Counted from the stretch's first letter, positions 20,943 to 64,000 are shown. The stretch: 64,000 nt of DNA from an uncultured Gammaproteobacteria bacterium (GCA_964352335.1 CAYGRO010000004.1:42970-106969), one strand, 5' to 3'. Numbers and translations: made by a program. The notes: a model not told the origin generated them from the letters alone.

Positions 20943-21401
20943 ATGCGCAACTTCATCATCCTCTCGATCTTCGTCTTCCTCACCGTCTTCACCGGCTGCG
21001 CCGCGACCCCGTTCGCAGAGCTCTCGCCCAGCGAGAAGCTGGAAATGGTCTACGGGAACTCGGGCGTCTCGTACCAGATGAAGGGGAGCGTCGTCACCCT
21101 CGCGCAGAACACCAACACGCTCGAGGTCATCAACAACCGCTTCGACTCCAACCCCGTGATCACGTTCTCCTGCGAGAGCGTGGGCGAGGAGCGGGTCAAC
21201 TCCAAGCTGGTGGGCGGGATCGTCGGTGGCGGCATCTACCACCACAAGGTGGAGATCCCCAAGCGCTTCTACAATAAGGAGGGGGTCATCTTGAGGATCG
21301 CCACTCCCATCTCGACCACCGAGAACAACGACGGCAGCTCGACCACGACTGAGTCGGTCGAGATCTTCGACCTGAAGGGAGCGCTCCTCAACCGGGAGTA
21401 G
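20943..21401 (+). CDS. Putative lipoprotein in a roughly 62% GC island
   Basis: A signal peptide ending in FTGC, a GGAG SD, and strong GC3 bias unlike its neighbours. Confidence 0.6.
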   Translation: MRNFIILSIFVFLTVFTGCAATPFAELSPSEKLEMVYGNSGVSYQMKGSVVTLAQNTNTLEVINNRFDSNPVITFSCESVGEERVNSKLVGGIVGGGIYHHKVEIPKRFYNKEGVILRIATPISTTENNDGSSTTTESVEIFDLKGALLNRE

Positions 21402-40939: not shown

Positions 40940-41719
40940 ATGGTCATTGTAAAAAATAAAGAGCAAATTGATGGGATTAGAAAAAGTTGCAAATTACTTG
41001 CAGAGGTTTTAGCTATGGTGGGTAAGCAAGTAAGACCAGGAGTAAGCCCAAAAGAATTAGATGTATTGGCAGAAAAATTGATTCGAGAAGCAGGAGGGAA
41101 ACCTGCTTTTAAAGGGTATAGAACAATGCCAGGTATTAAAGCATTTCCTTCTACTATTTGTGCTTCTGTTAATGATATTGTCGTTCATGGTTTTGGTGAT
41201 TCCGATGAGCCGTTAAAAGAAGGGGATATAATCGGTATTGATTGTGGGATAAATCTAAATGAGTATTATTCTGATATGGCAAAAACTTTTGCTGTTGGAA
41301 AAATTGATCCAGAAATCCAAAAAATGATGGACGTAACAGAAAAATCACTTTATAAGGGGATTGAGCAAATGAAACCAGGAGTTTCCATTCGAGCTATTTC
41401 AGCTGCAATTGAAAATCATATACAACCACATGGATATGGAATCATTAGAGGTTTTGCTGGACATGGAGTTGGGTTACAAGTTCATGAAGACCCGTGGATT
41501 CCAAATTATGTAGATGATCACTTAGAAGATAGTTTGTCTTTGGTAATGCAACCTGGTCATGTATTTGCGATTGAGCCAATGGTGACAAATGGGGGAGAAG
41601 ATGTAGAAATTCTTAGTGATGGGTGGTCAGTACAAACGGATGATCATTCTATTAGCGCTCATTTTGAGCATACTGTACTTGTTACAGAAGATGGGTATGA
41701 AATCTTAACATTATTGTGA
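40940..41719 (+). CDS. map: Methionine aminopeptidase type I
   Basis: Metal-ligand motifs including IVVHGFGDSD. Confidence 0.9.
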   Translation: MVIVKNKEQIDGIRKSCKLLAEVLAMVGKQVRPGVSPKELDVLAEKLIREAGGKPAFKGYRTMPGIKAFPSTICASVNDIVVHGFGDSDEPLKEGDIIGIDCGINLNEYYSDMAKTFAVGKIDPEIQKMMDVTEKSLYKGIEQMKPGVSIRAISAAIENHIQPHGYGIIRGFAGHGVGLQVHEDPWIPNYVDDHLEDSLSLVMQPGHVFAIEPMVTNGGEDVEILSDGWSVQTDDHSISAHFEHTVLVTEDGYEILTLL

Positions 41720-41810
41720 TGCGAATCTGCGAATACATTCGAATCTACAAATCATTACATATATTTGTAGATTAGTGTTCATTCGTATATTAGCATCACA
41801 CATTCGTATA
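41720..41810. repeat. MITE-like palindromic repeat, copy A
   Basis: gattcgaatctacaaat...atttgtagatt...agcatcacacattcgta. Confidence 0.6.
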
Positions 41811-47481: not shown

Positions 47482-47590
47482 TAATGATTCGAATCTACAA
47501 ATAGATCCGAATCCGCGAATGAATACTAATCTACGAATATTGTTAAAGAGGATATTTGCAGATTAGCATCACCATTCGTATTAAAATAAG
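47479..47590. repeat. MITE-like palindromic repeat, copy B
   Basis: atgattcgaatctacaaat...aatactaatctacgaatat...tatttgcagattagcatcaccattcgtattaaaataa. Confidence 0.65.
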
Positions 47591-52532: not shown

Positions 52533-53666
52533 ATGAAACGAATTTATCTAGACCATGCCGCCACGACTCCAATCGACTCAGAAGTTGCTAATGCTATGCA
52601 ACCTTTTTTGACTGAGCAATTTGGAAATCCTTCTTCTCTTCATCAAGAAGGGAAACAGGCAAGACTTGCTTTAGAAGAAGCTCGAGCAAAGATTGCTACT
52701 TTTTTACATGCACAAAATGAAGAAATAATTTTTACAGGTTCTGGGACAGAAAGTTGTAATCTTGCAATTGTTGGAGTTGCTTATGCTCAAAAAGAAAAAG
52801 GGAAACATCTTATCACAACAAAGGTAGAGCATCATGCTGTTTTAGAATCATTTGAATATTTAGAAAAACAAGGTTGGCAAATTACTTGGTTAGATGTCGA
52901 CGAATTTGGAATGGTCAATGCAAATGATGTGGCCAATGCGATTACTGATCAAACTGTTCTGGTCAGTATTATCATGGCCAATAATGAAGTTGGATCCATT
53001 AACCCTATTAAAGAAATTAATCGACGAGCGAAACAAAAGAATCCAAATGTCCTTGTTCATACAGATGCTTGCCAAGCTACTGGTTATCTAAAACTTGATG
53101 TGAAAAGCCTTGGAGTTGATTTACTTACTATCAATGCTTCTAAAATATACGGGCCAAAAGGAGTTGGTGTTTTGTATAAACAAAAATTAGTTAAACTCGA
53201 TCCTGTCATCCACGGAGGCGGGCAAGAAAAAGGTTTACATTCTGGAACACAAAATGTCCCAGCTATAGTTGGGTTTGCAAAAGCGGTAGAACTGATTAAT
53301 CTAGAGCCTGAATCAATCAAAGAATTACGAGATGAGTTTATTCAATTACTTCAAAAAGAAATCCCATCAATTGTGGTCAACGGTCATTTGGAAAAACGTC
53401 TCCCAAATAATGTAAATGTAAGTATCCCAGCAGTAGATGGGGAGACATTAGTAATCTTTTTAGATCAAAAAGGAATTGCTTGTTCAACAGCCGCTGCCTG
53501 TACAACCGCTTCAACTGAACCATCACATGTATTACTTGCCATGGGAAAAACAGAAGAAGAAGCCAAAAGCTCACTTAGATTCACCCTCGGAAAATCAACC
53601 ACAAAAGAAGATTTACAATATACCGTTGAAAAACTAAAAGAATCAATCCAAACCCTTTCTAAATAA
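52533..53666 (+). CDS. iscS: Cysteine desulfurase (class V aminotransferase, IscS/NifS-like)
   Basis: The N-terminus MKRIYLDHAATTP, the PLP-lysine region SKIYGPKG and a catalytic Cys loop. Confidence 0.85.
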   Translation: MKRIYLDHAATTPIDSEVANAMQPFLTEQFGNPSSLHQEGKQARLALEEARAKIATFLHAQNEEIIFTGSGTESCNLAIVGVAYAQKEKGKHLITTKVEHHAVLESFEYLEKQGWQITWLDVDEFGMVNANDVANAITDQTVLVSIIMANNEVGSINPIKEINRRAKQKNPNVLVHTDACQATGYLKLDVKSLGVDLLTINASKIYGPKGVGVLYKQKLVKLDPVIHGGGQEKGLHSGTQNVPAIVGFAKAVELINLEPESIKELRDEFIQLLQKEIPSIVVNGHLEKRLPNNVNVSIPAVDGETLVIFLDQKGIACSTAAACTTASTEPSHVLLAMGKTEEEAKSSLRFTLGKSTTKEDLQYTVEKLKESIQTLSK

Positions 53667-53702
53667 TATTTTACGCTTTACCAATTTACGCTTTTACATT
53701 CT

Positions 53703-54347
53703 ATGGCCCTATGTGCCCACCACAAACATGATAATGTCGACGGGATCGTGAGAAACGAGCCTTGGGTTGATACTGAGCGAGATTTTGTGAAAGTTTGTCA
53801 TTGTGAGCTTTGTACAAAAGGGAAAGCCGATGAAATCATCGAAACACTTCGAAAACATTTTACAGGGACAACTATGCAATTAGTTGCATCACCTAGCCCT
53901 GGTTCTACTTGCAAAAGAGGGAATAGCGTTATTATTAATGACCAAGTGGCGGTGATTACTGATTTGAATAATTTAGGGCAAAGAATTGATAAAGAAGTAG
54001 AAAGACAAAGGTTACAAAGACAAGATCATCCAGAAGAGAATAAAGATGTGATTAAAGTTTGTTTTGGTCCTAGTTGTGGACATAAAGGAGCAGAAGAAAT
54101 CGAAAAAAATCTTTGGAAACAATATAGTAAGAATGATGATGTAAGAATTATGCGATGCGGGTGTACAGGAAATTGTGCGCAAGCAAATAATGTGGTTGTA
54201 AATGACAATATTATCAATCGCCAAAGTCCATTGAGAGTGTTCAATAATGTCGAAATTGAATTAAGTAAACAAAGAAAAGAAAAAGCTCGAAATTCTGGTC
54301 CATTAACCATGGATGAGGCGGAAGATATTTTGGGGTTGGGGTTTTAA
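53703..54347 (+). CDS. Tandem thioredoxin-like [2Fe-2S] ferredoxin (NuoE-like) protein
   Basis: Two repeats carrying C-x4-C and a downstream Cys cluster: KVCHCELC and KVCFGPSC...CGCTGNC. Confidence 0.55.
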   Translation: MALCAHHKHDNVDGIVRNEPWVDTERDFVKVCHCELCTKGKADEIIETLRKHFTGTTMQLVASPSPGSTCKRGNSVIINDQVAVITDLNNLGQRIDKEVERQRLQRQDHPEENKDVIKVCFGPSCGHKGAEEIEKNLWKQYSKNDDVRIMRCGCTGNCAQANNVVVNDNIINRQSPLRVFNNVEIELSKQRKEKARNSGPLTMDEAEDILGLGF

Positions 54348-54452
54348 AATACCTCCCCTCAATCCCCTCCTAACTTAGGAGGGGAAGGTACGAGACTGTT
54401 TATCTTGTTCCTCCTCCCCTTTGCTAAGGGGGAGGTCGGGAGGGGGTATTGA
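54348..54452. repeat. Pair of GC-rich CCTCC..GGAGG palindromes
   Basis: The sequences cccctcctaacttaggagggg and cctcctcccctttgctaagggggaggtcgggagg. Confidence 0.5.
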
Positions 54453-54482
54453 TCAGCATTATTCAAGTGATAAAACATAAAT

Positions 54483-54806
54483 ATGCCAGTACGAATGTAC
54501 GAAGAAAATGAAATACATGAATGTAAAACTTGTGGTTTAATGCTACAGGTTTCTTTGGCTGCTGTTCCGATTGAACCGCTTATTTGTTGTGGGAGCTTAA
54601 TGGCATATTTAAAAAAGCATGAAAAACCAGAAGAAGTATTTGATCTGACACAAAAACCAGTTTTACCAAATGCTAAAGAAACTATTTATACAAAAGGGGA
54701 GAAATATACTTGTTCGCTTTGTGGTATTGAAGTTCTTATTCTTAGAACATCTCAACCTATTGATATGCTCGATTGTTGCGGAGAAGGTATGGAATTAATG
54801 AACTAA
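54483..54806 (+). CDS. Tandem desulforedoxin-domain protein
   Basis: Two copies of the Y-x-C-x2-C-G...CCGE-x-M pattern: ECKTCGLMLQV...LICCGSLM and YTCSLCGIEVLIL...LDCCGEGMEL. Confidence 0.65.
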   Translation: MPVRMYEENEIHECKTCGLMLQVSLAAVPIEPLICCGSLMAYLKKHEKPEEVFDLTQKPVLPNAKETIYTKGEKYTCSLCGIEVLILRTSQPIDMLDCCGEGMELMN

Positions 54807-54842
54807 CTAATGTGTTTGTCTTGTATTAGGTACTAGACGAGC

Positions 54843-55427
54843 ATGCTATTTAAATCATTAAGACAAAAAATTATGGAAGACCATGATATGATGCATTTCT
54901 CTCCACGTTTGGTGGGAAATCCTGCTCCATTATGGAAAATGGACGGAGTTAAAAAAGAAGATTTTCACTCTCACTCACTAGAAGATTATAAAGGAAAATG
55001 GTTGGTAATGTTTTTTTACCCATTAGATTTTACCTTTGTTTGTCCAACAGAAATTAAAGGTTTTGATAAAGAAGTAGAAAAATTCCGAGAAATGAATGCA
55101 GAAGTTGTAGGTGTTTCTACAGATTCAGTTCATTCTCATAAAGCATGGATTGCTCGAGACTTTGGTGGAGAGCTCAATATCCCATTGCTTTCAGATATGA
55201 CAAAAAATGTTGCTTACGACTATGGAGTTCTTTTAGAAGATGAAGGAATTGCTTTACGAGGAACATTTATTATCGACCCAGAAGGAGTTGTAAAATACGC
55301 TGTTGTTTCTGACAATAATGTAGGACGTTCTGTTTCTGAAACTTTACGTGTTCTAAAAGCATTACAATCTGGTGACCTTTGTCCAATTGATTGGGAAGAA
55401 GGACAAGATACTTTAGGGAAGGCTTAA
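54843..55427 (+). CDS. Peroxiredoxin (AhpC/TSA family, Prx6-like)
   Basis: The peroxidatic FTFVCPTEI motif and C-terminal LCPIDW. Confidence 0.85.
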   Translation: MLFKSLRQKIMEDHDMMHFSPRLVGNPAPLWKMDGVKKEDFHSHSLEDYKGKWLVMFFYPLDFTFVCPTEIKGFDKEVEKFREMNAEVVGVSTDSVHSHKAWIARDFGGELNIPLLSDMTKNVAYDYGVLLEDEGIALRGTFIIDPEGVVKYAVVSDNNVGRSVSETLRVLKALQSGDLCPIDWEEGQDTLGKA

Positions 55428-57668: not shown

Positions 57669-58265
57669 GTGGGCATCGGCCCTCGGCGTTTTTCATTCCC
57701 GCAGTTAGATAAGGGGGGACAATTGACCGAATCGAATGACCGTATTTTGCCTGAGGAGTTCTACAAGCTTCTCATGCACTCCATAACCGAACAACTGGCA
57801 ATGCTCAAGATTTCTGTCGATGCGACAGAGGAAGACTTTGTTCGCCAGCTGCTCAGGATCATCACCTCACTCCATCAAGTTCGTCGCATGCTCACCCAGC
57901 ATGATCCGCGCTTGAAGGAGATGATTGGTCAGATCATCGAGGAAGATGACTACTCTGATCCTGAGCTCGAGACTCGGCGTGCGGAGCGTGATGAGTTGAG
58001 CCAAGACTTCCTCGACGACGTCGAGATTGACCCGACGGACTTCCGTCTGGCGGAGACGCTGGTGCTTCTCGGGCAGTCCACCGGCTCGCTTCCTCCTTTG
58101 GACACCATTGACTTGGTCCAAAAGTTCTCGCGAGAGGCACTTGGGATCGGGCTCACCGTGGCCAACCAGGCAGGGGAATGCGAAGAAGTTTTCGTTCATC
58201 GCATCGTCAGCGTCATCAACGGCGAGATGGCTAGAAGCAGTTCTGCCGTTAAGGCGCTCACGTAA
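57669..58265 (+). CDS. Hypothetical acidic protein in a GC-rich island
   Basis: GC-rich 198-aa ORF with a GC hairpin at its 3' end. Confidence 0.4.
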   Translation: MGIGPRRFSFPQLDKGGQLTESNDRILPEEFYKLLMHSITEQLAMLKISVDATEEDFVRQLLRIITSLHQVRRMLTQHDPRLKEMIGQIIEEDDYSDPELETRRAERDELSQDFLDDVEIDPTDFRLAETLVLLGQSTGSLPPLDTIDLVQKFSREALGIGLTVANQAGECEEVFVHRIVSVINGEMARSSSAVKALT

Positions 58266-58611
58266 GCAACCATCCCTCTCAGCTGGCACGCGCTGGCTGA
58301 GAGGGGAAACATTATTAGTTATCCACAGTTTGATTTGAAAGTAATCTGATTTCTTAAAAATTAGGCAATTTGGTCACGGCTATGAGTTTGTGTTAGAATG
58401 TAATCACTCACAAAGGATAACGTCTAGACCTTTCGTACCACAACATGTTGTGGTATTATAAACCCAGAGGTCACTATATCTAGCAAACTGGGTTTGACGA
58501 AAAACCAGATCGGACGAGACCCTCTCATTGATCTACATACAATCGAGAATACGTCCCGCGATGTGGTTTTTTGTATGGGAAAATTTAGTTTCTCCCAATT
58601 AATTGAGTTCT

Positions 58612-58735
58612 TCAACTGCGGTATGATTCGAATTTACGAATTAATACTAATCTACAAATATCATTATAAAGAGGGTTATTTGCAGATTCGAATGTATTCG
58701 TAAATTAGCATCACCATTTGCAATAAAATAAACAG
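58612..58735. repeat. MITE-like palindromic repeat, copy C
   Basis: atgattcgaatttacgaatt...aatctacaaatat...tatttgcagattcgaatgtattcgtaaattagcatcaccatttgcaataaaataa. Confidence 0.65.
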
Positions 58736-58743
58736 TTACCCCT

Positions 58744-60552
58744 ATGACACCATCTTCTCCTAATGCTTTTACAAAAACAGCTCCAACTTCTGTTGGGGTA
58801 GATGCGAAAAGAAAAGAAATTCCTTTAAGCCAAACAGCAAAAGTGGTTGCAGAGAAACGGTATTTAACGAGAGATGAAAATGGAAATGTAAATGAAACCG
58901 TTTACGATATGTTTAAACGTGTTGCCGATAATATCGCTTCTGGTGATAAATTTTACGGAGCAACCGATGAACAAGTAGCACAAGTTTCGGAAGACTTTTT
59001 AGAAATGATGGTTGACCTCGAATTTTTAGCGGGGATGACTTTAAGAAATGCTGGTCGAGAATTACAACAATTGTCGGCTTGTTATGTTTTACCCATGGAA
59101 GATTCCATGGACTCTATTTATACAACCTTAAAAAATGCAGCCAAGTTGCATAAAACAGGTGCAGGAATTGGATACGACTTTTCTAAACTTCGGCCAAAAA
59201 ATGCAGAAGTAAAAACAACTGGAGGAAAATCTTGTGGTCCAGTTGGTTTCATGAAGCTCATTGAATTCTCTTGTGACACAATCGTCAATTCTGCTGCCAC
59301 TCGTCGGGCGGGGAATATGGGGATTTTACGTATTGATCATCCAGATATTGATGAATTTTTATCTGCGAAAGAAGATAATTCTCAATTAAATAATTTTAAT
59401 ATCTCTGTAAACGGTACCGATGTTTTTATGGAAGCCGTTAAAAATGGAACAACCTACGATATTACAGATCCACATACAGGAAAAATAGTAGAACAAAGAG
59501 ATGCACGACAAATGTTTGACCGCATTATCGAAAAAGCATGGCGTTCTGCGGAACCAGGGATGATCTTTTTTGATGAAGTAAACCGATATAATCCAACACC
59601 ACAATTGGGGCCAATGTCTGCAACGAATCAATGTGGGGAACAACCATTATTCCCATATGAAGCTTGTAATTTAGGTTCTATCGTTTTAAATCGCATGGTG
59701 CAAAAAACACCAAATGGTTTAACAGAAATCGATTGGGAAAAATTAGAAGACCGAGTACGCAAAGCCGTTCACTTTTTAGATAATACAATCGACCTTAATA
59801 ACTACCCATTAGAAGAATTACGCAAAATGAATCATGCGAACCGGCGAATTGGTCTTGGTGTCATGGGGTTTGCAGATTTATTAATCGAATTAGGGATTCC
59901 TTATAATTCAGAAGAAGGGGTAAAGACGGCAGAAGTTGTCATGAAGTTTATCCAAGAAAAATCTCATGATGAAAGCCGACGGTTAGCAAAAGAACGAGGA
60001 AGTTTTCCTAACTTCAAAGGTTCTCGATGGGAACGATTAGGGTATACAGAAATGCGAAATGCCACTGTAACAACGATTGCTCCAACAGGGACAACAAGTA
60101 TTTTTGCAGGATGTTCATCTGGAATTGAACCAATTTTCTCTTTGGTCTATGTTCGAAAAAATATTTTAGACCAAGATAAAGATTCGTTTATGGAAGTTCA
60201 TCCGCTCTTTGAAGAAAAGCTCAAAGAAAAGTGGCTCTACAATAAAGATATTCTAGAACAAGCAGCTCAACTAGGTTCATTAGAAAAGGTAAACGGAATT
60301 CCAGAAGACTTAAAACATGTTTTTGTCACCTCACATGATATTGCTCCAGAATGGCATGTCAAAATTCAAGCGGCTTTTCAGAAACATACAGATAATGCCG
60401 TTTCGAAAACAGTAAATATGCCACATGAATCGACCAAAGAAGATGTTGCTAATGTGTATATGATGGCTTATGAGACTGGATGTAAGGGAGTAACGATTTA
60501 CCGAGATGGAAGTCGGGATAAACAGGTACTTAACTTAGTTAAAAAGAAATAA
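58744..60552 (+). CDS. nrdJ: Class II (adenosylcobalamin-type, NrdJ-like) ribonucleotide reductase, module 1
   Basis: The thiyl-radical loop TNQCGEQPL, the active-site Cys pairs SACYVLP and EACNLGS, and the CSSGIEP motif. 602 aa. Confidence 0.8.
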   Translation: MTPSSPNAFTKTAPTSVGVDAKRKEIPLSQTAKVVAEKRYLTRDENGNVNETVYDMFKRVADNIASGDKFYGATDEQVAQVSEDFLEMMVDLEFLAGMTLRNAGRELQQLSACYVLPMEDSMDSIYTTLKNAAKLHKTGAGIGYDFSKLRPKNAEVKTTGGKSCGPVGFMKLIEFSCDTIVNSAATRRAGNMGILRIDHPDIDEFLSAKEDNSQLNNFNISVNGTDVFMEAVKNGTTYDITDPHTGKIVEQRDARQMFDRIIEKAWRSAEPGMIFFDEVNRYNPTPQLGPMSATNQCGEQPLFPYEACNLGSIVLNRMVQKTPNGLTEIDWEKLEDRVRKAVHFLDNTIDLNNYPLEELRKMNHANRRIGLGVMGFADLLIELGIPYNSEEGVKTAEVVMKFIQEKSHDESRRLAKERGSFPNFKGSRWERLGYTEMRNATVTTIAPTGTTSIFAGCSSGIEPIFSLVYVRKNILDQDKDSFMEVHPLFEEKLKEKWLYNKDILEQAAQLGSLEKVNGIPEDLKHVFVTSHDIAPEWHVKIQAAFQKHTDNAVSKTVNMPHESTKEDVANVYMMAYETGCKGVTIYRDGSRDKQVLNLVKKK

Positions 60553-60665
60553 TTTGTTCTCAACATAATTTATCGAATCTACGAATTAAAACCAATCTAC
60601 AAATAAATCAATTCGTAATCCGTAGATTTGTCCTAATTCGTAGATTCGATACCTAACCACTTCAA
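60553..60665. repeat. MITE-like palindromic repeat, copy D
   Basis: atcgaatctacgaatt...aatctacaaat...cgtagatttg...cgtagattcgat. Confidence 0.55.
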
Positions 60666-60729
60666 ATAAATAAATTAACATGCTTGTCTTCACCTCGCTT
60701 TCGGGCAAGGTGAGCGTGATCCCACTATT

Positions 60730-63700
60730 ATGACCGCAAAACAAATAATGGCGAAAGTCAAACCAAATCTAGCAGAACAATCTCTGGCCGTTGCTCAAAA
60801 ACGGTATATGAAAACAGATGAACAAGGGAATCCTACAGAAACCCCAGAAGAAATGTTCTACCGAGTTGCCGAATTTTTAGCTTCTGGTGATAAAAAGATT
60901 AATCCAAATGCAGATACAACGGCTTTGGCTGAATCTTTTTACCAAATGATGGCTAAGTTAGAATTTGTTCCTGGTGGACGAGCTTTTTTTGAAGCTGGTA
61001 ATGACCATACGGGTCAAATGGCTTCTTGTTTTGTCCTTCCTATTGAAGACACAATGGAAGGTATTTTTCAAACATTAAAAGATGCGGCGATTACTCAACA
61101 AAATAATGGTGGAACTGGTTTTAATTTTTCTAAAGTTCGACCAAAAGGAGATACAGTAAATGGAGTGCCTGGAGTTGCGGCTGGGCCATTACATTATATT
61201 CGAAGTTTCGACCAAGCATTTAGTAAGGTTTTGCAAGGTGGGAAACGTCATGGTGGGAATATGGGAGTCTTAAATGTAGACCATCCTGATATTGAAGAAT
61301 TTATTCGATTAAAAGATTCTGGTTCTGATATTAAAAACTTTAATATTTCTGTTGGGGTGACAAATGCATTCATGGAAGCTGTTCGTATGGATACGAGTTG
61401 GGATTTGATTAATCCTTCTACAAAAGAAGTCACAAAAACAGTTCAAGCTAAAGAAATTTTTGACGCTATTATTGAACGTGCGCATAAATGCGCTGACCCT
61501 GGGTTATTATTTATTGACCATGTAGCAGACGGAAACAATAATGCGCATCTTTACGATATGGTGGCAACAAACCCTTGTGGGGAACAACCACTTGGTCCGT
61601 ATGAAAGTTGTAATTTAGGTTCATTAATTTTGTCTAATCATGTTACACCTGCTGGGCAAGTAGATTGGCAAAAATTACAAAGAACATCAAAATTAGCGAC
61701 TCGGTTCATGGATAATATGATCGAGTTAAATAAATATCCTATTCCGGCGATTGACTACATGGTTCGCCAAACCCGAAAAATTGGAATTGGTGTAATGGGA
61801 TTTGCCCAAATGCTTTATAAACTTAATATTCCTTATTCTTCTCAAGAAGCAGTCGATTTGATCGAAAAAATCATGAAGACGATTCATACTTCTATTGAAG
61901 AAGAAAGCATGGTTTTGGCAGAAGAAAGAGGAGTATACCCAGCGTGGAAAGGTTCTCGATGGGAAGAAAAAGGAATCAAAATTCGAAATTCTCATTTAAC
62001 TTCTATTGCTCCAACAGGAACAATTTCAATGCTTGCAAATACATCATCTGGAATTGAGCCTTACTTTAACTTGGTAACAATTCGAAAATCATTTTATAAC
62101 CAAGGAGGAAGCGACAATAATACAGCCAATGCAGAAACATTAAGAATCGTAGCTGATGACTTTGAACGTGTGGCCAAAGAACGAGGGTTTTATTCTGATG
62201 AATTAATGGATCGTATTGCTGAAGAAGGAAGTGTTCAAGGATTTGCAGAAATCCCTCAAGATGTAAAAGATATTTTTGTTACAAGTAGAGATGTTGCTCC
62301 ACAATGGCATGTGAAAATTCAAGCAGCTGCACAAAAATGGACAGATGCTGCCGTTTCAAAAACAGTAAACTTGCCAAATGACGCAACAATTGAAGATGTG
62401 CGCCAAACGTATATTCTTGCTTATGAAACAAAATGTAAGGGAGTAACTATTTACCGTGATGGATCTAAATCTGACCAAGTATTGTCACTTAAAAAGAAGG
62501 CTGAAGACAAAGCGCCTGCAACTGCAGAGATCAAAGTTCCTGTGGTACAAACAGCTCCAATATCTCAACCTGTTGCACATCCTGTGTCTACAAGTACTTC
62601 TGTAAATAAACCGCTTATTACTGGTGACGTAAATCCAGAAGCGATTATTACCAAAAATGCACAAACTGTTTTACAAAAACGTGCACTCAAAAAAGATGAC
62701 CAAGGAACTGTGGTAGAAAATCCAGAAGATTTATTCCACCGTGTAGCACGGTTTATGGCTAGTCCAGAAAAACAATATGATGTGCCAGAACAACGAATAG
62801 CAGAAATTCAAGATAAATTTTACGGAATGCTTTCTCGGCTCGAATTTATTGCTGGTCAACCATTGAGAAATTCAGAAACAAATTTAACCATGTCTGCTTG
62901 TTTGGTATTGCCTATTGAAGACAATATCGAAGGGATTATGCAAACGATTTCTGAAAATGTTTTTGCGCATAAATCTACTTGTGGAACGGGTATTAACTAT
63001 TCTCGTATCCGAATGAAAGGGTCTGGTGTAGGAGAAGTTGGTCCTATTGCTGCTGGTCCTGTGCATTTTATGAAAGCGGTTTCGGTTGCACAAAAAACCA
63101 TTCAAACCAAAGGTGGTCGTTCTCAAGGAAGTATGGGGATTTTAAATGTGGACCACCCAGATATCGACGCCTTTATTAAAGCGAAAGATATTGAAGGAGA
63201 ATTCGATAATATGAATATCTCGGTTGGAGCAACCGATAAATTCATGGAAGCTCTACGAAATGACGCAGAATATGACATGTACGACCCAGGAGAAAAGAAA
63301 GTGGTTAGCAAAATGCGAGCCAAAGATATGTTCGATAAAATTGCTGAACATGCATGGGTAAGTGGAGATCCAGGGTTAATTTTTGTGGACCGATTAGAAA
63401 GAGATAATCCAACACCAAGTTTAGGGATTTTAGATGCAACTAACCCATGTGGAGAACAACCATTATTACCGTATGAAACATGTAATTTAGGTTCTATTGT
63501 TTTATCTCGCATGGTTAAACCAGATGCACAAGGAAATCCGGTAATTGACTGGGATAAATATGCAGAAACAATTTATTATTCTGTACGTTTCTTAGACAAT
63601 AGTATTGATGTAAACAATTTCCCGTTAGCAAAAGTAGAACAAATGTCTAAAGGAACTCGACGTATTGGTCTAGGAGCTATGGGGTTTGCAGATTTACTTA

Positions 63701-64000
63701 TTAAATTAGGTATTCCTTATAATTCAAATGAAGCGGTAGAACTGGCAGAAGAAATGATGAAATTCTTAAATGACCATGCACATAAAGCAACTGAAGAAAT
63801 CGGTGCAGAAAAAGGGTCTTTCCCATACTTTGATATTTCTGTTTGGCCTGAACGCGGTGTTAAGGCACGAAGAAATTCTGCGGTAACAACTATTGCGCCA
63901 ACTGGGTATACAAGTATCGTTGCTAATTGTTCTTCTGGAATCGAACCTATTTACGCTTTGGCTTTCCGTCGAGAAAACTCTATGGGAGGAACAGATCAAT
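60730..64000 (+). CDS. nrdJ: Fused tandem class II ribonucleotide reductase (modules 2 and 3 in one ORF), 3'-truncated by the window edge
   Basis: Frame 1 is open from the ATG at 60730 to the window end. Module 2 carries ASCFVLP, TNPCGEQPL and ESCNLGS. A roughly 50-aa P/V/A/T-rich linker follows at about 62490-62650. Module 3 carries SACLVLP, TNPCGEQPL and ETCNLGS. Confidence 0.75.
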   Translation, partial: MTAKQIMAKVKPNLAEQSLAVAQKRYMKTDEQGNPTETPEEMFYRVAEFLASGDKKINPNADTTALAESFYQMMAKLEFVPGGRAFFEAGNDHTGQMASCFVLPIEDTMEGIFQTLKDAAITQQNNGGTGFNFSKVRPKGDTVNGVPGVAAGPLHYIRSFDQAFSKVLQGGKRHGGNMGVLNVDHPDIEEFIRLKDSGSDIKNFNISVGVTNAFMEAVRMDTSWDLINPSTKEVTKTVQAKEIFDAIIERAHKCADPGLLFIDHVADGNNNAHLYDMVATNPCGEQPLGPYESCNLGSLILSNHVTPAGQVDWQKLQRTSKLATRFMDNMIELNKYPIPAIDYMVRQTRKIGIGVMGFAQMLYKLNIPYSSQEAVDLIEKIMKTIHTSIEEESMVLAEERGVYPAWKGSRWEEKGIKIRNSHLTSIAPTGTISMLANTSSGIEPYFNLVTIRKSFYNQGGSDNNTANAETLRIVADDFERVAKERGFYSDELMDRIAEEGSVQGFAEIPQDVKDIFVTSRDVAPQWHVKIQAAAQKWTDAAVSKTVNLPNDATIEDVRQTYILAYETKCKGVTIYRDGSKSDQVLSLKKKAEDKAPATAEIKVPVVQTAPISQPVAHPVSTSTSVNKPLITGDVNPEAIITKNAQTVLQKRALKKDDQGTVVENPEDLFHRVARFMASPEKQYDVPEQRIAEIQDKFYGMLSRLEFIAGQPLRNSETNLTMSACLVLPIEDNIEGIMQTISENVFAHKSTCGTGINYSRIRMKGSGVGEVGPIAAGPVHFMKAVSVAQKTIQTKGGRSQGSMGILNVDHPDIDAFIKAKDIEGEFDNMNISVGATDKFMEALRNDAEYDMYDPGEKKVVSKMRAKDMFDKIAEHAWVSGDPGLIFVDRLERDNPTPSLGILDATNPCGEQPLLPYETCNLGSIVLSRMVKPDAQGNPVIDWDKYAETIYYSVRFLDNSIDVNNFPLAKVEQMSKGTRRIGLGAMGFADLLIKLGIPYNSNEAVELAEEMMKFLNDHAHKATEEIGAEKGSFPYFDISVWPERGVKARRNSAVTTIAPTGYTSIVANCSSGIEPIYALAFRRENSMGGTDQ

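Follow-up and report, generated by a model that had tools for sequence, protein, structure and literature searches.

At the 3' end of a 64,000-nt stretch of DNA (GCA_964352335.1, CAYGRO010000004.1:42970-106969; hereafter the window) lie three catalytic modules of class II ribonucleotide reductase (RNR), the adenosylcobalamin (AdoCbl)-dependent enzyme NrdJ. One module is encoded by a free gene, and the other two share a single reading frame. We refer to the free module as F and to the N- and C-terminal modules of the fused protein as N and C. The free and fused genes together make up a conserved and publicly abundant system of the Patescibacteria (Candidate Phyla Radiation, CPR) that is not peculiar to the present genome. 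The identity of the system is secure; how it works we infer. We propose that the locus is the operon for deoxyribonucleotide synthesis in a bacterium of the Patescibacteria (CPR), in which a tethered pseudo-heterodimer of N and C works together with F, substrate handling is divided and one reducing tail is shared. We give this assembly roughly an even chance of being correct. The initial annotation of the window had recognized the three modules; the single tail, the class-conserved specificity loops and the class-conserved phosphate loops go beyond it.

Three class II modules, two of them in one chain

That the second and third modules occupy one frame was part of the initial annotation, and the open reading frame (ORF) listing and the translation bear it out (Table 1). 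The 1090 residues of the fused frame in view are identical to those of a 1467-aa NCBI protein (P0001), and more than 100 homologues are built alike. Pfam places the all-alpha and barrel domains once in F and twice in the fused chain. Past the window, P0001 continues for 377 residues with the rest of the C barrel, a TSCPD/IscU-like domain (PF12637, residues 1260-1354), a low-complexity spacer of ~60 residues and a terminal zinc-finger tail with six Cys (CPDC...CLLCRGC...KCG). By arithmetic from the 1467 aa, the stop codon of the fused gene falls ~1.13 kb past the window end. A fourth module, which had been considered possible downstream, is not there, since the protein ends in the TSCPD domain and the Cys-rich tail.

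We scored each module separately against hidden Markov models. With the NrdJ equivalog TIGR02504 (cut-off 400), F reached 671 bits, N 662 bits and C, of which the window shows 460 aa, 470 bits. Scores with the class I model TIGR02506 (cut-off 341) were 341, 334 and 221 bits, about half of the NrdJ scores, and the model for monomeric ribonucleoside-triphosphate reductase (RTPR), TIGR02505 (cut-off 340), gave only 46-80 bits across the modules. From their sequences, the assignment of all three modules to class II (AdoCbl-dependent) NrdJ is secure, in agreement with the first assessment. The predicted dependence on AdoCbl is backed by the equivalog model and by an adenosyltransferase gene that neighbors the cluster in relatives. 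No nrdB/nrdF, nor nrdG with a glycyl radical domain, was found in six relatives' loci.

The modules are of the dimer-forming type (NrdJd) and not monomeric NrdJm/RTPR. The closest solved structure by sequence is the dimeric Thermotoga maritima NrdJ (E ~5e-109). F aligns with 1xjk over the stretch that begins at the first redox Cys and extends over helix alpha-A, loop 1, alpha-B and loop 2, with a single one-residue gap, at loop 2. Foldseek gave a template modelling (TM) score on the target of 0.82-0.84 to 1xje and 3o0n, both T. maritima NrdJ. A dimer-type NrdJ module requires a partner to build its specificity site. NrdJd enzymes are homodimers of identical chains; here, modules that are 44.6% identical are fused and a third paralogue lies beside them.

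All of the catalytic motifs first quoted for the three modules are present. In F, N and C, respectively, the first redox-Cys motif reads SACYVLP, ASCFVLP and SACLVLP, the thiyl-loop motif reads TNQCGEQ, TNPCGEQ and TNPCGEQ, and the second redox-Cys motif reads EACNLGS, ESCNLGS and ETCNLGS. The catalytic residues are invariant across orthologues: all 283 modules compared (69 F, 107 N and 107 C) have both redox Cys, the Asn, the thiyl Cys, the Glu and the flanking Gly and Asn. The initial Asp of helix alpha-A and the loop-1 Arg, which we take to be effector-site markers in class I and class II enzymes, are likewise 100% conserved in every module class. The ratio of nonsynonymous to synonymous substitution (dN/dS) is 0.060 for F, 0.075 for N, 0.072 for C and 0.16 for the linker between N and C, measured against a 90%-identical relative (L001) that also served as the proxy for the DNA downstream of the window. 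These comparisons suggest that none of the three modules is a dead subunit.

Conservation and age of the free and fused genes

We examined six relatives' loci (L001, L003, L005, L087, L088 and L089), which are 48-90% identical to the query. A free nrdJ (584-718 aa) followed by a fused nrdJ~nrdJ-TSCPD is present in 6/6. The spacer between the two genes is 18-41 bp in 4/6 loci, and one or two small genes lie between them in two Dojkabacteria loci. The regulator gene nrdR is directly 5' of the free nrdJ in 4/6 loci (L005, L087, L088 and L089). Directly 3' of the fused gene, where the initial annotation had raised the possibility of btuFCD, relatives encode a CobA/CobO/BtuR-type adenosyltransferase (4/6 loci: L001, L003, L088 and L089).

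The same domain order is shared by more than 100 cluster representatives of 1350-1670 aa, each with two NxCGE motifs. Named fused homologues come from Parcubacteria, Kerfeldbacteria, Andersenbacteria, Uhrbacteria and Dojkabacteria/WS6 or are listed as "Patescibacteria group". For 31 of the 43 closest fused proteins, an F-class protein matches in the exact size of the longest contig, indicating that fused and F-class proteins sit on the same contig. In a library of representatives at 50% identity, only three entries score above 1100 bits, as a double module would; the next best scores 751 bits and listed scores extend down to ~500, a range that is single-module by score, the architectures being deduced from the score. 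These data indicate that the fused family is one narrow clade. A search with the back-translated pattern ATNPCGE.. was uninformative on the fused family, since the pattern matches any NrdJ and the at least 80 loci returned were single-module loci from other phyla.

How old are the three modules? Pairwise BLASTP identities in the window are 45.7% for F and N, 49.1% for F and C and 44.6% for N and C, each over ~580-590 aa. We aligned 107 fused proteins, cut into N and C, with 69 free F orthologues and the 47 closest single-copy NrdJ proteins (class S), and built neighbor-joining trees with bootstrap runs of 50 and 40 replicates. F formed a clade in 50/50 replicates and N in 47/50 (39/40 in the second run), and the split of F and S from N and C was recovered in 38/50. 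The C modules, the most divergent class, were not recovered as one clade. Mean identity is 56% for F-S, 50% for N-S, 47% for C-S, 47% for F-N, 47% for F-C and 44% for N-C, and the Dojkabacteria free genes are closest to class F. Because modules group by position across lineages, the triplication is ancient, as the initial annotation had held when it set an old triplication against an assembly collapse; the three classes predate the split of the sampled CPR lineages. All three classes have moved off canonical NrdJ, N and C further than F.

Two other origins were considered and set aside. Independent duplication in each CPR lineage was rejected, with same-lineage groupings of N and C in 0/40 bootstraps. 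An origin of N from a triphosphate-type NrdJ lineage is unsupported, given that the best single-module relatives of the N module carry the P-N-S-P apical loop discussed below. The best single-module relatives of every class are P-N-S-P enzymes of the dimeric type. Two divergent proteins are of note. P0241 (1351 aa) is fused, and the apical loop of its N module is a near-canonical P-A-S-P. P0255 (765 aa) has a single module, with an apical region (FVCSGKAMFEAGN) similar to that of class N. These proteins suggest stepwise evolution, possibly with unfused N-type genes.

The relatives' clusters contain further genes. In some Dojkabacteria, a complete Ham1/inosine triphosphatase (ITPase) domain (PF01725; residues 620-805 of P0076, L087 8001-13007) sits inside the linker between the modules, joining a nucleotide-sanitizing enzyme to the reductase. 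Such proteins are 1600-1670 aa long and include P0109, P0110, P0113, P0114 and P0116-P0118. Also in Dojkabacteria, a conserved small ORF overlaps the free-nrdJ stop by 4 nt (L005 6555-6800, L087 7088-7537); Pfam gives no match for it, and a NUDIX-like protein comes next, ahead of the fused gene. We considered these small ORFs as NrdJb-like or redoxin partners and rejected the idea because they contain no Cys. Two nucleoside-diphosphate kinase genes lie near the L088 cluster and a dCTP deaminase gene lies near the L089 cluster. In L001 (12669-20334) and L089 (12318-13962), the cobA/btuR gene 3' of the fused gene is followed by three more proteins: one of 660 aa with prenyltransferase/squalene-cyclase-like repeats and DUF4430, a DUF4430 protein and a DUF6580 protein. 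In L001 these DUF4430/DUF6580 proteins lie a few kb beyond the adenosyltransferase. The 660-aa architecture recalls transcobalamin and, by this analogy, the set is likely to comprise components for cobalamin capture or uptake.

Reducing tail, class-specific loops and proposed assembly

In other NrdJ enzymes, a Cys-rich zinc-finger tail re-reduces the active-site disulfide. The six-Cys tail is present in 114/115 fused proteins. F proteins end 10-30 aa past the barrel, mostly without Cys, and the N module passes directly into the linker. Thus, of the modules in the window, C alone is followed by a TSCPD domain and Cys tail, and F and N have neither. Electron transfer from the tail to a different subunit's active site, together with tail-dependent oligomerization, has been reported (Loderer et al., PMC5704485), and in Pseudomonas aeruginosa the tail domain can act as a separate chain (Crona et al., PMC4520616). 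By analogy with transfer in trans and with a separate tail chain, it is plausible that the one tail reduces the active sites of the tail-less F and N. The free NrdJ of L088 (5814-7970, 718 aa) has a TSCPD domain with four Cys and no zinc-finger tail, and is an apparent intermediate in tail loss.

We compared specificity loop 2 among the classes after mapping its positions on T. maritima NrdJ by alignment (residues 202-211). Class S has an invariant K-Q-G-G-T-R-R-G-A. Class F reads V-N-N-A-A-T-R-R-A-G, with one extra residue and with the Gln replaced by Asn in 84%. Class N reads L-Q-G-K-K-R-G/H-G-G and retains the Gln in 99%, and class C reads R/K-G/T-R/K-G-G-R-x-L/Q-G, with the Gln gone. The central Arg of the loop is invariant in every class.

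The phosphate site's apical loop also differs by class. It is P-N-S-P in 100% of class S. Class N has P-G-[S 59% / G 35%]-R, P-G-G-R being the version in the window. The loops of F and C are one residue shorter: [S/A]-G-M-[T/A/S] in class F (A-G-M-T in the window) and [S/C/A]-G-[G/Q]-[T/A/P] in class C (A-G-Q-P in the window). Each loop version is kept within its class across lineages that are otherwise ~50% identical. The apical loop sets diphosphate versus triphosphate specificity, with P-N-S-P marking diphosphate and P-[A/S/G]-G-R triphosphate enzymes (Schell et al. 2021, PMC8365446). These two motifs account for more than 97% of NrdJ sequences, and 69% of genomes with several nrdJ genes mix both phosphate types (PMC8365446). 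The N apical loop predicts triphosphate use. Taken together, the different class-conserved loops point to divided substrate handling.

Do N and C pack against each other? We modeled residues 14-1212 with AlphaFold2 from a 107-sequence alignment and obtained a mean predicted local distance difference test (pLDDT) of 87.7 and a predicted TM score (pTM) of 0.78. The linker is the sole long low-confidence stretch (pLDDT <50 at model residues 577-612, 36 residues). For two domains of ~580 residues, a pTM of 0.78 would imply a confidently placed interface. The predicted structure is compatible with the suggestion in the initial annotation that the fused heterodimer acts as a fixed asymmetric dimer, and is not proof of it. 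Alignment columns 298-299 of helix alpha-A (~62950-62960 in C) read Asn-Ile/Val in class C versus Ala/Thr-Ala in S, F and N. This difference could represent a knob-and-hole asymmetry at the dimer interface.

In the assembly we favor, N and C would pack as a covalently tethered pseudo-heterodimer whose two specificity sites would not be equivalent to each other, nor would its two active sites. F would form a dimer of its own; it is the class nearest to ordinary homodimeric NrdJ, which makes a homodimer the simplest expectation. The single tail, on its long flexible spacer, would act in cis to re-reduce N and C and, within a higher oligomer, in trans to re-reduce the tail-less F. Substrate handling would be split among the modules through their class-specific loop 2 and apical loop. 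A stricter version, in which all of these parts form one obligate hetero-oligomer, the modules split nucleotides by their loops (possibly into di- and triphosphates) and one mobile tail serves all sites, is in our estimation unlikely.

Several points weigh against the favored assembly. The packing of N on C is inferred from a single pTM value; AlphaFold may put any two RNR modules into the known dimer mode, and the linker is long enough for other pairings. The absence of C-terminal domains from F is not universal, as the F protein of L088 retains the TSCPD domain, and the native reductant of zinc-finger NrdJ tails is not known (PMC5704485). As for substrates, no motif of known specificity corresponds to the apical loop of F or of C, and 59% of N modules have P-G-S-R and not the characterized P-[A/S/G]-G-R. 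P-N-S-P is what the nearest single-module relatives carry in every class, so the N motif is derived. Finally, the effector-site residues are intact in all three modules, which would therefore still be allosterically regulated and not hard-wired.

These points leave room for other readings. The pairing itself could differ: N~C chains might form a head-to-tail (N~C)2 ring, or the pairs might be F:N with C:C or F:C with N:N, so that the holoenzyme is a defined hetero-oligomer that includes F. We consider this a serious contender, if on balance a doubtful one. The gene for F always accompanies that for N~C, and F has no tail of its own; electron transfer in trans by the Stackebrandtia nassauensis NrdJ needs tetramers or larger (PMC5704485); and a linker of 3-43 aa with flexible flanks imposes no single geometry. 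The class C Asn-Ile/Val in helix alpha-A suggests that C does not pair with itself and leaves its partner unspecified. On the other hand, the single-chain pTM of 0.78 favors intramolecular packing, and F is the class most like homodimeric NrdJ. Alternatively, one or two modules could be non-catalytic regulatory or scaffold pseudo-subunits that complete the specificity site of a partner, as Rnr4 does for Rnr2. The F and C versions of loop 2 do lack the canonical Gln, their phosphate loops are non-canonical and a single reducing tail has three modules to serve. However, the five catalytic residues and the flanking Gly and Asn are invariant in 283 modules, dN/dS is equally low across the three modules and the full-length NrdJ equivalog matches take in the C-terminal part, all of which makes pseudo-subunits improbable.

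We also weighed whether any of this reflects function. The modules might be redundant paralogues kept for dosage or condition-specific expression, with no division of labor and with the fusion a neutral accident. Many bacteria have more than one RNR, and all three modules look competent. Yet the genomes are small and the genes sit together in a single operon-like cluster, which speaks against differential expression; the class-specific loop residues are kept across lineages only 48-60% identical; and more than 100 representatives retain both the fusion and the single tail. We judge redundancy to have little probability. An assembly artefact, whether a frameshift or chimeric join between N and C or a collapse of strain variants, is refuted for practical purposes. 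An independent Logan contig breaks in a repeat after F, and no other support for an artefact was found. Against it, more than 100 independent assemblies show the fused frame, some of them on contigs of 0.8-1 Mb; identity between the modules is only 45-49%; and the linker is under purifying selection.

Surroundings of the locus, related enzymes and implications

The positions of the modules, their loops and the sites around them are listed in Table 1. The linker of the present protein falls within the range of 3-43 aa seen among homologues. The remaining window is ordinary chromosome, with genes for RecQ, EF-G, SecY, UvrD and a cysteine desulfurase.

Table 1. Positions in the window of the nrdJ genes, their functional loops and nearby sites
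Feature	Position	Strand	Remarks
Putative NrdR-box-like palindromes (two), 5' of F	58438-58453 CCACAACATGTTGTGG; 58471-58486 TCACTATATCTAGCAA	+	33 bp start to start
Intergenic hairpin repeat (REP/MITE-like), 5' of F	58624-58713	.	37-nt arms, 81% complementary
Free nrdJ, module F	58744-60552	+	602 aa; ATG start, TAA stop; PF00317 and PF02867
F phosphate-site apical loop, L-A-G-M-T	59026-59040	+	motif defined in PMC8365446
F specificity loop 2, VNSAATRRAGNM	59284-59319	+	canonical Gln replaced by Asn; one-residue insertion
F finger loop (Asn, thiyl Cys, Glu) and second redox Cys, TNQCGEQPLFPYEACNLGS	59623-59679	+	
Intergenic hairpin repeat, gap between F and fused gene	60571-60651	.	30-nt arms, 90% complementary; fold -31.8 kcal/mol
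Fused frame N~C	ATG 60730 to window end	+	1090 codons without interruption (translation); several stops precede from 60553
Module N, N-terminal NrdJ module of fused protein	60730-62505	+	residues 1-592 of P0001
N phosphate-site apical loop, V-P-G-G-R	60967-60981	+	P-G-G-R is the triphosphate-type motif
N specificity loop 2, LQGGKRHGGNM	61231-61263	+	canonical Gln retained
N finger loop and second redox Cys, TNPCGEQPLGPYESCNLGS	61567-61623	+	
Linker between N and C, DKAPATAEIKVPVVQTAPISQPVAHPVSTST	62506-62598	+	31 aa, Pro/Val/Ala/Thr-rich; predicted disordered
Module C, second NrdJ module of fused protein	62599-64000	+	460 aa in view; window end cuts the module
C phosphate-site apical loop, I-A-G-Q-P	62848-62862	+	one residue below canonical size
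C specificity loop 2, QTKGGRSQGSM	63103-63135	+	canonical Gln gone
C finger loop and second redox Cys, TNPCGEQPLLPYETCNLGS	63439-63495	+	

The two palindromes 5' of F match the NrdR-box consensus at 12/16 and 11/16 positions, and only six sites in the whole window reach 12/16 of that consensus. L001, L003 and L088 also have a palindrome pair with 32-33 bp spacing, located 5' of either the free nrdJ or nrdR. NrdR may bind these putative boxes. A motif search found no nrdR gene in the window. Upstream of F and of the fused gene, no cobalamin riboswitch or other Rfam RNA was detected, only chance-level microRNA hits (E ~0.3); across the whole 64-kb window, no Rfam family reaches the gathering threshold, and tRNA genes are likewise absent.

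The two hairpins in Table 1 resemble repetitive extragenic palindromes (REP) or miniature inverted-repeat transposable elements (MITE). They belong to an intergenic family of 80-90 bp with further copies at 41715-41800 and 47485-47570; with up to two mismatches allowed, its core (ATTCGTAGATTCGA) is found 10 times in the window, versus 0.39 expected. The initial annotation had placed such repeats between the modules and suggested that they mediated the duplications. One copy does lie 5' of F and one between F and the fused gene, but none separates N from C, where the DNA is coding sequence. A role in the duplications is rejected, since distant Patescibacteria have position-specific orthologues and the 18-41 bp spacers of relatives between the free and fused genes lack the repeat. 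The hairpins are a recent feature of the present genome and do not belong to the reductase system. For the same organism, an independent Logan assembly (L086) ends 276 bp past the F stop, inside a hairpin copy.

Two ORFs, 57669-58265 (GC content 54.6%) and 20943-21401 (GC 60.8%), stand out in a window of 37% GC, and neither has a Pfam match. The first encodes 198 aa and has a 198-aa counterpart directly 5' of the nrdJ cluster in L001 (5193-5789) and L086 (4290-4886). Just 5' of the nrdJ cluster, at 52533-55427, the cysteine desulfurase gene is accompanied by three more ORFs, which the annotation of their L001/L086 counterparts identifies as a thioredoxin-like [2Fe-2S] protein, a desulfoferrodoxin-N-like protein and a peroxiredoxin. 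These redox genes might relate to the tail reductant or be there by coincidence.

Of the known enzymes, NrdJd from T. maritima (PDB 1XJE/3O0O) and from S. nassauensis is the nearest in kind. Fold and catalytic residues are common to both, as are helix alpha-A, loop 1 and a loop 2 region without the insertion of monomeric enzymes, and the C-terminal IscU-like (TSCPD) domain with its six-Cys zinc-finger tail is found here on the C module. In NrdJd enzymes, a single gene product forms the homodimer and every catalytic module has its own tail, whereas here three non-identical modules have one tail and the specificity and phosphate loops are non-canonical. Duplication of an RNR subunit to give an obligate non-equivalent partner is known from yeast, in the Rnr2-Rnr4 beta heterodimer and the Rnr1/Rnr3 alpha paralogues. 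Rnr4 has lost catalytic metal ligands, and the eukaryotic subunits are unfused and of class I. In contrast, the three modules here keep their catalytic residues, two are fused and all belong to class II.

The split NrdJa/NrdJb enzyme of P. aeruginosa is a precedent for a tail-less catalytic chain that uses the tail of another polypeptide (PMC4520616), as we propose for F. NrdJb has no catalytic module and the complex is (NrdJa-NrdJb)2, whereas here the tail donor would be a double catalytic chain; moreover, duplication and fusion, and not fission, gave rise to the present architecture. Genomes with several nrdJ genes can contain paralogues with different apical motifs (PMC8365446), as is the case here with P-G-G-R in N. 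That work covers separate genes of two motif families and no fused proteins, and the F and C loops described here fit neither family.

The architecture was put forward as one not known to be described, and our literature search likewise turned up no account of NrdJ modules in tandem or fused form, nor any of RNR in CPR, which is not proof of absence. Two broad RNR surveys discuss class II C-terminal domains and the split enzyme and no fused or tandem catalytic modules (PMC9531940, PMC9669993). The parts are known (the NrdJd core, the IscU-like domain, the zinc-finger tail, NrdR and CobA); the arrangement is, as far as the search shows, new. All such proteins are annotated merely as "vitamin B12-dependent ribonucleotide reductase". 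Since they are public under generic names, the novelty lies in recognition and interpretation and not in new sequence.

The arrangement would surprise a specialist in RNR. CPR bacteria have minimal genomes and scavenge nucleotides and cobalamin, yet they devote ~6.2 kb to this enzyme across distant lineages, which speaks for a real selective reason. RNR specificity is understood from symmetric homodimers in which one loop 2 reads all four effector-substrate pairs. Three intact and different alpha modules, two of them in one chain, offer a way to probe an asymmetric specificity site. The system also allows one to ask whether di- and triphosphate specificity can be partitioned within one enzyme and how far a single Cys-rich tail can reach. 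If an obligate hetero-oligomer with divided labor is indeed formed, no earlier class II RNR would have had catalytic subunits that are not equivalent, and the fused chain would be a natural heterodimer in one polypeptide whose two specificity sites differ.

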